Source: Escherichia coli (lineage in GTDB: Bacteria; Pseudomonadota; Gammaproteobacteria; Enterobacterales; Enterobacteriaceae). Taken from it: a stretch of DNA of 64,000 nt. The stretch lies in NCBI RefSeq assembly GCF_050920415.1, contig NZ_CP169309.1. One strand, written 5' to 3'. The notes beneath the pieces are model-generated. The model did not search any database, had not been told where the DNA came from, and saw nothing but the letters and a program-made list of their open reading frames with translations. A program made the position numbers and the translations under genes. Below are positions 32,397 to 62,664 of the stretch, piece after piece. Every line of letters begins with the position of its first letter. Position 1 is the first letter of the stretch.

Positions 32397-33323
32397 ATGC
32401 TCCCGCCTTATTTTTTGTTCAACGAGATGACAGACACACACTATATTGGTCGCTTCGCCCCCTCTCCTTCTGGCGAGCTTCATTTTGGCTCTCTGATTGC
32501 CGCGCTTGGAAGCTTTCTACAGGCTCGCGCCCGGCAAGGTCGCTGGCTTGTTCGCATTGAAGATATCGATCCGCCTCGTGAAGTTCCCGGTGCCGCAGAG
32601 ACCATCCTGCGCCAGCTGGAACATTACGGTCTACACTGGGACGGCGATGTTCTCTGGCAATCGCAACGTCACGACGCCTATCGCGAAGCACTCGCATGGT
32701 TACATGAGCAAGGGTTAAGTTATTACTGCACCTGCACGCGCGCACGTATTCAAAGCATTGGCGGTATTTACGACGGTCATTGCCGGGAGTTGCATCATGG
32801 GCCAGAAAACGCTGCTGTACGTATTCGCCAGCAGCATCCGGTCACCCAGTTTACTGACCAGCTGCGCGGCATTATTCATGCCGACCAAAAACTGGCGCGG
32901 GAAGATTTTATTATTCATCGCCGTGATGGTTTATTTGCCTATAACCTGGCGGTGGTCGTTGACGATCACTACCAGGGCGTGACAGAAATTGTCCGTGGCG
33001 CGGATTTGATCGAACCCACGGTGCGCCAAATCTCGCTGTACCAGCTTTTTGGCTGGCAGGTGCCAGATTACATTCATTTGCCACTGGCACTTAATCCACA
33101 AGGCGCTAAACTTTCCAAGCAGAATCATGCGCCTGCGTTGCCAAAAGGCGATCCTCGGCCGGTGTTAATCGCGGCACTTCAATTTCTGGGCCAGCAGGCA
33201 GAAACACACTGGCAGGATTTCAGCGTCGAGCAAATTCTCCAGTCAGCCGTCACAAACTGGACGCTGACTACCATTCCTGACTCGGCAATTGTAAATTCAA
33301 CATTCTCAAATGCGTCATGCTGA
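32397..33323 (+). CDS. gluQ: glutamyl-queuosine tRNA(Asp) synthetase (GluRS paralog)
   Basis: 308 aa; class I aaRS HIGH-like motif ([11 protein letters not shown]) and KLSKQ; alternative start at 32427. Confidence 0.85.
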
Positions 33324-33382
33324 GCTATGATTAGCCGCTATTTTTTTGTCCTGAATGATGTTTGACACTACCGAGGTGTACT

Positions 33383-34780
33383 ATTTTTACCCGAGTCGCT
33401 AATTTTTGCCGCAAGGTGCTAAGCCGCGAGGAAAGCGAGGCTGAACAGGCAGTCGCCCGTCCACAGGTGACGGTGATCCCGCGTGAGCAGCATGCTATTT
33501 CCCGCAAAGATATCAGTGAAAATGCCCTGAAGGTAATGTACAGGCTCAATAAAGCGGGATACGAAGCCTGGCTGGTTGGCGGCGGCGTACGCGACCTGTT
33601 ACTTGGCAAAAAGCCGAAAGATTTTGACGTGACCACCAACGCCACGCCTGAGCAGGTGCGCAAACTGTTCCGTAACTGCCGCCTGGTGGGTCGCCGTTTC
33701 CGTCTTGCTCATGTCATGTTTGGCCCGGAGATTATCGAAGTTGCGACCTTCCGTGGACATCACGAAGGTAACGTCAGCGACCGCACGACCTCCCAACGCG
33801 GGCAAAACGGCATGTTGCTGCGCGACAACATTTTCGGCTCCATCGAAGAAGACGCCCAACGCCGCGATTTCACTATCAACAGCCTGTATTACAGCGTGGC
33901 AGATTTTACCGTCCGCGATTACGTTGGTGGCATGAAGGATCTGAAAGACGGCGTTATCCGTCTGATTGGTAACCCAGAAACGCGCTACCGTGAAGATCCG
34001 GTACGTATGCTGCGCGCGGTTCGTTTTGCCGCCAAATTGGGCATGCGCATCAGCCCGGAAACCGCAGAACCGATCCCACGCCTGGCAACCTTGCTAAACG
34101 ATATTCCTCCGGCGCGTTTGTTTGAAGAATCTCTGAAACTGTTGCAAGCGGGCTACGGTTACGAAACCTATAAACTGCTGTGTGAATACCATCTGTTCCA
34201 GCCGCTGTTCCCGACCATTACCCGCTACTTTACGGAAAATGGTGACAGTCCAATGGAGCGGATCATTGAGCAGGTGCTGAAGAATACTGACACGCGTATT
34301 CATAACGATATGCGCGTCAACCCGGCGTTCCTGTTTGCCGCCATGTTCTGGTATCCCCTGCTGGAAACAGCACAGAAAATTGCCCAAGAGAGCGGCCTGA
34401 CTTATCACGACGCTTTCGCGCTGGCAATGAACGATGTGTTAGACGAAGCCTGCCGTTCACTGGCGATCCCGAAACGGCTAACCACTTTAACCCGTGATAT
34501 CTGGCAATTACAGTTGCGCATGTCCCGCCGTCAGGGTAAACGCGCATGGAAATTACTCGAACATCCGAAGTTCCGCGCCGCTTATGACCTGCTGGCACTG
34601 CGTGCTGAAGTAGAACGCAACGCCGAGCTACAACGTCTGGCGAAATGGTGGGGTGAGTTCCAGGTTTCCGCGCCGCCAGACCAAAAAGGGATGCTTAACG
34701 AACTGGATGAAGAACCGTCACCGCGTCGTCGTACTCGTCGCCCGCGCAGACGTGCGCCGCGCCGTGAGGGCACCGCATGA
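33383..34780 (+). CDS. pcnB: poly(A) polymerase I
   Basis: 465 aa if initiated at the ATT codon at 33383 ([13 protein letters not shown]...), with GAGGTG Shine-Dalgarno 7 nt upstream; the track ORF begins at an in-frame TTG at 33362. Confidence 0.85.
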
Positions 34781-53832: not shown

Positions 53833-55227
<1,395 letters not shown>

Positions 55228-59712: not shown

Positions 59713-62310
59713 TTAAACCGCAGTCTGGAAAATCACCCCATCTGCTTTTTCGGTGTACTGAGAAAGCTGGTTGAAGTTCAGATAACGGTAAGTATCAACG
59801 GCTGTTTTATCTACCTGCGCCACGTAGGTCTGGTACTCTTCCGGCGTCGGCAGTTTGCCAATCAGCGCCGCAACAGCAGCCAGTTCCGCAGAAGCCAGGA
59901 AGACGTTCGCGCCAGTCCCCAGACGGTTCGGGAAGTTACGGGTAGAGGTGGAAACCACCGTCGCACCGTCTGCTACACGCGCCTGGTTACCCATACACAG
60001 GGAACAGCCAGGGATCTCGATACGCGCACCACTCTTACCGAAGACGCTGTAGTAGCCTTCTTCGGTCAACTGCGCGGCGTCCATACGCGTTGGCGGAGCC
60101 ACCCACAGACGGGTCGGCAGCTGACCTTTATGCGCATCCAGCAGTTTACCGGCGGCACGGAAGTGACCGATGTTGGTCATGCAAGAACCGATAAACACTT
60201 CGTCGATCTTCTCGCCCTGTACCGCAGACAGCGGACGTGCGTCGTCCGGGTCGTTCGGTGCACAGAGGATTGGCTCTTTGATATCAGCCAGATCGATGTC
60301 GATTACTGCTGCGTATTCTGCATCAGCATCGGCTTCCAGCAGCTCAGGATTCGCCAGCCATTTTTCCATGCCCTGAATACGGCGTTCCAGGGTACGACGA
60401 TCGCCGTAACCTTCCGCGATCATCCACTTCAGCAGGACGATGTTAGAGTTCAGGTATTCAATGATCGGCTCTTTGTTCAGCTTGATGGTACAACCGGCAG
60501 CAGAACGCTCGGCGGACGCATCGGTCAGCTCAAAGGCCTGCTCAACTTTCAGATCCGGCAGACCTTCAATTTCCAGAATGCGACCAGAGAAGATGTTTTT
60601 CTTGCCTTTCTTCTCAACAGTCAGCAGACCTTGTTTGATCGCATACAGCGGAATGGCGTGTACCAGATCGCGCAGGGTGATGCCCGGCTGCATTTTGCCT
60701 TTGAAGCGAACCAGAACGGATTCCGGCATATCCAGCGGCATTACGCCTGTTGCAGCTGCAAATGCCACCAGACCAGAGCCCGCCGGGAAAGAGATACCGA
60801 TCGGGAAACGGGTATGGGAGTCACCGCCAGTACCGACGGTATCCGGCAGCAGCATACGGTTCAGCCAGGAGTGGATTACGCCATCACCCGGACGCAGCGA
60901 CACACCGCCACGGTTCATGATAAAGTCCGGCAGCGTGTGGTGCGTGTTCACGTCAACTGGTTTCGGATACGCCGCGGTGTGGCAGAAAGACTGCATCACC
61001 AGATCAGCCGAGAAGCCCAGGCACGCCAGGTCTTTCAGTTCATCACGGGTCATCGGGCCGGTGGTGTCCTGAGAACCGACAGAGGTCATTTTCGGTTCGC
61101 AGTACGCACCCGGACGAATGCCTTTCACGCCGCAGGCACGACCGACCATTTTCTGCGCCAGCGAGAAGCCGCGATCGCTCTCAGCGACATCTTTCGCCTG
61201 ACGGAACACATCGCTGTGTGGCAGGCCGAGTGCTTCACGCGCTTTGGTGGTCAGGCCACGCCCGATAATCAGCGGAATACGACCGCCAGCACGCACTTCA
61301 TCAATCAGCACGTCGGTTTTCAGTTCGAAGGTTGCCAGCAGTTCGCCGGTTTCGTGGTTACGCACTTCACCTTTGTACGGGTAAACGTCAATCACGTCGC
61401 CCATGTTCAGGTTAGAGACGTCGACTTCGATTGGCAATGCACCCGCGTCTTCCATCGTGTTAAAGAAGATTGGTGCAATTTTACCACCGAGGCACAAACC
61501 ACCGCCGCGTTTGTTCGGTACATGAGGAATATCTTCACCCATAAACCACAGCACGGAGTTAGTCGCAGATTTACGCGAGGAACCGGTACCCACAACGTCA
61601 CCCACATAGGCCAGCGGGAAACCTTTCTGTTGCAGAGCTTCGATTTGCTTGATCGGACCAACAACACCCGGCTGATCTGGCTCGATGCCTTCACGCGCGT
61701 TTTTCAGCATCGCCAGCGCGTGCAGTGGGATATCCGGGCGCGACCACGCATCCGGTGCCGGAGAAAGGTCATCGGTGTTGGTTTCGCCAGTTACTTTGAA
61801 GACGGTAACGGTCAGTTTTTCAGCCAGCGCCGGGCGATTCAGGAACCATTCGGCATCCGCCCAGGACTGCATTACCTGCTTCGCATATTCGTTACCTGCT
61901 TTCGCTTTCTCTTCTACGTCATAGAAGTTATCGAACATCAGCAGCGTGTGAGAAAGTGCTTTGGCAGCGATCGGTGCCAGTTTGGCATCATCCAGCGCGT
62001 CGATCAGCGGATGAATATTATAACCACCCTGCATGGTGCCCAGCAGTTCGATGGCTTTTTCCGGAGTCAGCAGTGGGGATTTAGCTTCGCCTTTGGCGAC
62101 AGCAGCCAGGAAGCCTGCTTTGACATAGGCGGCTTCATCGACGCCAGGGGGAACACGGTTGGTTAACAGATCTAACAGGAATTCTTCTTCGCCCGCGGGC
62201 GGGTTTTTCAGCAGCTCTACAAGTGCGGCCATTTGGTTTGCATCCAGGGGTTTGGGCGCAATCCCCTCAGCGGCACGCTCAGCTACGTGCTTACGGTATT
62301 CTTCTAGCAC
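59713..62310 (-). CDS. acnB: aconitate hydratase B
   Basis: 865 aa assuming a GTG start ([22 protein letters not shown]...) preceded by a GAGGAG RBS; the track ORF extends 51 codons upstream. Confidence 0.93.
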
Positions 62311-62664
62311 GACGGTTCTCCTCGCTCTCATTGTCATAGTGCGGCAGGCGATTCTCTTCACGCTCCTGTGAGACAGCAGTTTGTAGGGTAAATGCCCAGT
62401 ACCGCAACGGGCAGAATAGCAGGATTTTGACGATGTGTTAATCTGTTTACAAAAAAGCAACATAAAAAAGTGGCTGAATCGTTAAGGATGGTCTAGAGAT
62501 TGTTTCCCTCCGTAAAAACTTCGTTAATTCGCATGGTGATAATCACCTTTCTCAACGAATCCCAAGATTAGTCAAAATTTAAACTACCGCCTCTTTATAC
62601 TCGGATTCACAGCACCTGCGGGTGGCAGTTCGCCGACCATTGCGATTTCCTTGAGATCCGAATT

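Follow-up and report, generated by a model that had tools for sequence, protein, structure and literature searches.

Where does translation of pcnB begin, if no ATG stands between the in-frame stop codon upstream (33356-33358) and the conserved N-terminus of PcnB? The gene codes for poly(A) polymerase I (PAP I), which marks RNAs for decay and sets the copy number of ColE1-type plasmids. We addressed the question in a stretch of 64,000 nucleotides (the window), an Escherichia coli chromosome segment that runs from pyrH to lpdA in the reverse of the K-12 orientation. The original prediction placed the start at an ATT codon. In our analysis pcnB translation almost certainly starts at this non-canonical AUU (33383), which is positioned by a Shine-Dalgarno (SD) sequence and is inefficient, keeping the enzyme scarce. 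Sequence and comparison with relatives show where the start lies, its SD and the constant distance between them, where coding begins, and that no usable canonical alternative exists. That initiation actually occurs at the AUU, and that this limits expression, is taken from the K-12 literature. The AUU start of pcnB was already known, having been published in 2002, and stands in the reference annotation; the window adds nothing new to it. The coordinates of the features are collected in Table 1.

Table 1. Features of the pcnB start region in the window.
Feature	Position	Strand	Basis
Promoter-like site for sigma-70, TTCTCA, 17 nt, TATGAT	33303-33331	+	only promoter-like match in 33000-33600
gluQ stop codon TGA	33321-33323	+	direct reading
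In-frame TGA closing the pcnB reading frame upstream	33356-33358	+	direct reading
TTG, start of the mechanical 472-aa ORF, not the real start	33362-33364	+	ORF list
SD, GAGGTG	33373-33378	+	invariant in 80/80 species; duplex -7.2 kcal/mol
Spacer TACT, 4 nt, length fixed, sequence variable	33379-33382	+	80 species
ATT (AUU), initiation codon of pcnB	33383-33385	+	conservation, RefSeq, NF008634, literature
pcnB CDS, poly(A) polymerase I, 465 aa and stop	33383-34780	+	NF008634, PDB 3AQK-3AQN, annotation
pcnB codons 2-12, invariant peptide, synonymous variation unusually low	33386-33418	+	81 sequences
GTG (Val12), rival start, 454-aa product	33416-33418	+	used by many ab initio callers
First in-frame ATG (Met52), 51 codons downstream	33536-33538	+	direct reading

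Initiation signals and their conservation

By direct reading, the ATT is followed by the codons TTT ACC CGA GTC GCT AAT TTT TGC CGC AAG GTG CTA, and the 3' end of pcnB overlaps the start of folK at 34777. The window holds the conserved synteny gluQ-pcnB-folK. The claim that no ATG yields this N-terminus was borne out, the first in-frame ATG being that at 33536. Upstream of the conserved N-terminus the sole canonical in-frame start of this window is the TTG at 33362, which is without an SD. As had been said, the supplied ORF track reaches this TTG, where an ORF of 472 aa is listed.

The strength of SD sequences was scored as the duplex with the 3' end of 16S rRNA at 44 start sites of the window. 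The GAGGTG at 33373-33378 with its 4-nt spacer yielded -7.2 kcal/mol for the ATT, a stronger duplex than in 32 of the 40 other genes, in line with the claim of a well-spaced SD. This places it above the window median, in contrast to the 'poor ribosome binding site' mentioned in PMC3561954. An SD at functional spacing serves the AUU, and by the same scoring the rival TTG and GTG have none. An SD of this quality, invariant and always at the same distance, is consistent with a start codon that depends on every possible aid to work. The arrangement GAGGTG-N4-ATT occurred once, against 0.38 matches expected per 64 kb; as a single-sequence statistic this is not beyond chance, and the significance of the arrangement comes from its conservation.

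Conservation was assessed with pcnB loci from 80 Enterobacteriaceae species that share 87-100% protein identity. Both the ATT and the GAGGTG were invariant in 80/80 species and always 4 nt apart, while the spacer had ten different sequences, every one of 4 nt. Upstream, codons -10 to -4 and -1 varied at several codon positions (at all three except at codon -4), stops occurred at codons -10, -9, -6 and -5 in some species, and 1-nt indels were present upstream of the SD. Codon -1 specified five different amino acids across the species. Codons -3 and -2 were fixed, only because they are the SD. From codon 0 (the ATT) to codon +12 each position retained one amino acid in the 81 sequences, with synonymous third-position changes only. 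By this alignment, the coding signature sets in right at the ATT.

When the region was compared with K-12, there was no mismatch over the 306 nt from -101 to +205 around the ATT (33282-33587). The flanks differed by 5-10%, with 21 mismatches in about 200 nt at the 3' end of gluQ, and the pcnB CDS carried 94 mismatches in about 1190 nt, all of them from +206 onward. Of the 5424 complete E. coli genomes that matched the 121-bp start region, 5422 did so with at least 99% identity. Across the 80 species codons 2-11 were the top windows of synonymous-site conservation in pcnB, followed by a second peak at codons 35-48. The mean major-codon frequency was 0.93 for codons 2-11 versus 0.71 elsewhere in pcnB (permutation p ~1e-5), and codons 2-9 were almost frozen synonymously, the rare CGA codon included. 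The mismatch-free 306 nt and the conservation peaks at codons 2-11 and 35-48 suggest a constraint at the nucleotide level. It is a tentative and rather doubtful idea that this constraint goes beyond AUU and SD and reflects a possibly undescribed regulatory element. Candidates could be a context that tunes the AUU (IF3 or growth rate), the site of a regulator, or overlapping signals of an internal promoter or alternative start. The multiple promoters and the alternative start of PMC2939334 may explain part of the constraint. Nothing in our analysis argued positively for a further RNA-level signal around the start.

Several observations concern the window as a whole. Its first 53.9 kb differ by 5 SNPs from NZ_CP169399.1 (strain MFDS1022581). 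Identity to K-12 was about 90-96.5% over the HSPs of 26611-63922, and identity to E. albertii, E. whittamii and an Escherichia sp. locus was 91-93%. At 33150-33750 the identity was in the 95-99% band for all except 2 of the 5424 E. coli genomes that matched, with 95.7-97.2% among the matches listed, apart from one partial hit. These identities suggest that the window comes from a divergent Escherichia lineage that carries the label E. coli. Relative to NZ_CP169399.1 there is an insertion of about 1276 bp between gcd and cueO (53925-55200). The insert is an IS621 copy (IS110 family); 2244 of 5426 E. coli genomes carry this element, with a median of 5 sites each. The transposase of this copy may be interrupted, because its largest ORF, on the minus strand at 54361-55008 with a DEDD_Tnp_IS110 domain, comprises only 215 aa.

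Annotation of the start in databases and in distant relatives

RefSeq/PGAP annotates pcnB with an ATT start and 465 aa both in NZ_CP169399.1 and in K-12 (b0143). The NCBIfam equivalog NF008634 scored 997.6 bits against a cut-off of 702, and positions 1-468 of its 469 aligned to residues 8-471 of the 472-aa ORF product. Position 1 of the profile falls on the ATT codon and the seven residues encoded from the TTG are left out. Thus the curated PcnB N-termini, i.e. position 1 of NF008634 and K-12 b0143, both begin at the ATT. The initiation of pcnB at the ATT of 33383, as originally predicted, is upheld by the 80/80 conservation, the identity with K-12, RefSeq and NF008634. In a precomputed listing close PcnB homologues carry the Pfam domains PolyA_pol, PolyA_pol_RNAbd and PolyA_pol_arg_C, and PcnB is near-identical to PDB 3AQK-3AQN over the crystallised core. 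As evidence for the N-terminus these structures were set aside; their constructs begin at residue 28 (ATT numbering) and are silent on the native N-terminus.

Among 120 public protein cluster representatives 51 had the correct N-terminus, 15 were extended upstream and 54 were truncated. The truncated ones begin at the GTG 11 codons downstream or at later ATGs; most carry no source name and stem from ENA, Logan or JGI predictions. Products that begin with MLSREES are common in ENA and Logan predictions, and the NCBI-sourced entries of 465 aa carry the correct N-terminus. The contention that automated callers misplace this start therefore stood for the 69 of 120 representatives that are wrong, but not for the NCBI pipeline (RefSeq/PGAP), which is now correct for E. 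coli. Misplacement is real for ab initio callers, and it is commoner downstream, as truncation, than at the TTG. The gene can serve as a control case of annotation, as a caller limited to ATG, GTG and TTG cannot place the pcnB start correctly. The same caution had been advised for acnB, hrpB, panC and speD. This did not hold; their GTG, GTG, GTG and TTG starts coincide with those curated in K-12, an SD precedes each (-6.2 to -9.1 kcal/mol) and nothing suggests misplacement. On the minus strand the longest acnB ORF (59713-62463) has an ATG start and 916 aa, and the annotated and curated start is the internal GTG at 62310 (865 aa), which is preceded by a strong SD, GAGGAG. The longest-ORF rule over-extends acnB.

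In Salmonella enterica subsp. diarizonae (L024) and arizonae (L025) an ATG is located 21 nt upstream of the ATT, at the place of the E. coli TTG (-7). GAGGTG-N4-ATT is intact in both, and by eye no SD-like purine-rich run was seen upstream of the ATG. Among the PcnB proteins of Salmonella at NCBI, the 472-aa form MTLPRCAIFTRV... is the most frequent (P0013, 2921 member sequences). Given the ATG at -7 and the 472-aa form as the commonest protein, an upstream start may be used in Salmonella.

The search was extended to one representative per 50%-identity cluster, and the DNA of relatives including L085-L090 was compared. GAGGTG-N4-ATT was kept in three loci with 62-67% protein identity (L085, a 1.08-Mb record, L086 and L088), in which the codons after the ATT were changed and still encoded a hydrophobic/basic peptide, e.g. 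LKRITQLYRSLV. L089 (55% identity) had GAGGAT, followed by ATT ATT and then TKVINLYHRLF. In L087, a metagenome contig with 55% identity, the homologous codon was ATC, followed by RRVIELCKKVIG. No ATG, GTG or TTG was found there between the upstream stop and the ATC, only a CTG directly after the stop. The pcnB start of L087 is probably AUC, as read from its sequence. In the same contig (1114-1200) the called ATG start drops the conserved motif I-RRVIELCKKVIG, which is encoded upstream in frame. More distant representatives had a canonical Met directly before a similar motif, e.g. MLIIKKLFKKIF and MIRKLIKVFTRK; L090 had an ordinary ATG and a different N-terminus, and the distant representative P0145 begins with Leu. 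The neighbours gluQ, pcnB and folK recur in distant relatives. In L086 pcnB is split into ORFs of 316 aa and 150 aa, by a frameshift or an assembly error. By these comparisons the N-terminal peptide of PcnB is a conserved feature of the protein, which argues against a start at the GTG of 33416. It also matches the phylogenetic evidence for AUU starts in many Proteobacteria that PMC3561954 reports from Binns & Masters.

Rival start codons

By the longest-ORF rule pcnB would start at the TTG of 33362 and yield 472 aa with the extra N-terminus MTLPRCT. We consider this highly improbable. The TTG is the only canonical in-frame start upstream of the conserved N-terminus and would probably lie on the mRNA from the predicted promoter, and public databases contain forms of 472 aa, among them the principal Salmonella entry at NCBI, which has ATG at this codon. 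Yet the TTG has no SD, its duplex of +0.4 kcal/mol being the second weakest of the 44 sites scored. A TTG is found at this position in only 26/80 species, and in 43/80 the frame holds no ATG, GTG or TTG from the upstream stop to the ATT. Furthermore, the seven extra codons are variable (at all three positions in codons -7, -6, -5 and -1), include stops and 1-nt indels, and are invariant only in the SD itself. The extension is also excluded by the curated profile NF008634 and by the RefSeq annotation. A start at the GTG of 33416 (Val12), which would give 454 aa and turn the stretch from GAGGTG to GTG into a conserved 5' leader, has next to no credibility either. This GTG is conserved in 80/80 species, many ab initio predictions begin there (MLSREES...), and the extreme nucleotide conservation of 33386-33415 is in principle compatible with a function at the RNA level. 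On the other hand its duplex of +0.5 kcal/mol was the weakest of the 44 sites, again without an SD. Codons 2-11 contain five variable sites, each of them a third position with synonymous changes only; by our own arithmetic the chance of this is about (1/3)^5 = 0.4% if the stretch were non-coding. The GTG start would remove the conserved N-terminal peptide, whose codons are altered in distant relatives that nevertheless keep the hydrophobic/basic pattern, often right after a canonical Met. Finally, the literature puts the pcnB start at the AUU (PMC2939334, PMC3561954).

The ATG at 33536 (Met52) touches on an additional product and is compatible with the AUU start. Under special conditions an extra isoform could be made from it on transcripts of the internal sigma-S promoter pS1. 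According to PMC2939334 pS1 is active in vitro and, in the absence of ppGpp, in stationary-phase cells, and anti-PAP I detects two bands on Western blots; the peak of synonymous conservation at codons 35-48 is located just upstream of this ATG. However, its SD forms a weak duplex (-3.9 kcal/mol) and is poorly placed, immediately next to the codon, other genera have their first in-frame ATG at codon +18 or +28 instead, and the authors of PMC2939334 themselves call the truncated isoform unproven. Thus we regard the isoform as unlikely. An ATG was historically proposed as the pcnB start (Liu & Parkinson 1989, in the account of PMC2939334), and the ATG at 33536 is presumably the one discussed there. 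The AUU at 33383 remains our preferred start of pcnB translation.

Transcript, control of expression and known systems

The promoter-like site of Table 1 overlaps the gluQ stop codon. Its element GAGCTATGAT..GCCGCTATTTTTTTG is conserved across genera, and L086 keeps it although gluQ ends about 226 nt upstream there. In L086 (1081-1210) the conserved promoter-like element GAGCTATG..(A/G)CCGCTATTTTTT(T)GG ahead of pcnB occurs twice in tandem, about 95 nt apart. PMC2939334 describes several promoters at pcnB, one of them an internal promoter for sigma-S, as well as a possible alternative start at an ATG; the site at 33303-33331 is probably the published major promoter pB. A transcript from it would carry both the TTG of 33362 and the ATT of 33383. 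No terminator was found between gluQ and pcnB, and 33150-33650 gave no Rfam match even at E = 1. A hairpin that sequesters the SD was considered, since in the minimum-free-energy structure GAGGUG is paired with UACCCG and the AUU lies in the loop. It was not supported: compared with shuffled sequences the leader showed no excess stability (z = +0.8 and +0.3), L088 lacks the complementary bases downstream, and the region varies too little for a test of covariation.

The AUU start of K-12 pcnB was shown experimentally by Binns & Masters (2002, Mol Microbiol 44:1287, PMID 12068810), whose conclusions are restated in PMC2939334, PMC3561954, bioRxiv 10.1101/063800, PMC5499595, PMC4447247, PMC9410913 and PMC2830850. 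The claim that an inefficient AUU start limits poly(A) polymerase agrees with this K-12 result as the citing papers give it. PAP I is present at about 30-50 molecules per cell and is toxic when overproduced, according to PMC3561954; in the published account its scarcity is maintained through the AUU start. The same paper is inconsistent on the start codon, giving UUG in its introduction and AUU in its discussion, which could mislead text mining. The N-terminomics and riboproteogenomics supplements that we searched do not mention pcnB.

We propose the following sequence of events. The promoter that overlaps the end of gluQ probably yields the pcnB transcript, on which the invariant GAGGUG 4 nt upstream would position the 30S subunit over the AUU. 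By established knowledge the initiator tRNA pairs imperfectly with this codon, and IF3 rejects such a start; initiation would therefore be inefficient, and its infrequency would keep PAP I at a few tens of molecules per cell. Discrimination of IF3 against AUU is described as generally established in PMC5499595 and PMC9410913, and for pcnB specifically we infer a dependence on IF3.

The closest known system is pcnB of K-12 (b0143), which shares with the window the gene itself, the context dksA-gluQ-pcnB-folK, the SD, the spacer, the ATT and the 465-aa annotation. Strain background is the only difference, with 94-96% identity over the flanking regions and no mismatch in the initiation region. 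Several of the papers that restate Binns & Masters name pcnB and infC as the only two confirmed AUU-initiated genes of E. coli. Like pcnB, infC, the gene of IF3, has a confirmed AUU start that limits expression via poor initiation and discrimination by IF3. In contrast to pcnB, for which no feedback is known, infC is autoregulated, as its own product discriminates against the AUU; it lies outside the window. In Enterococcus faecalis a rare ATT start likewise attenuates expression of ebpA, and there, too, the start was originally annotated elsewhere (PMC4447247). Yet ebpA is an unrelated gene of an unrelated organism, and its annotated start was a downstream ATG.
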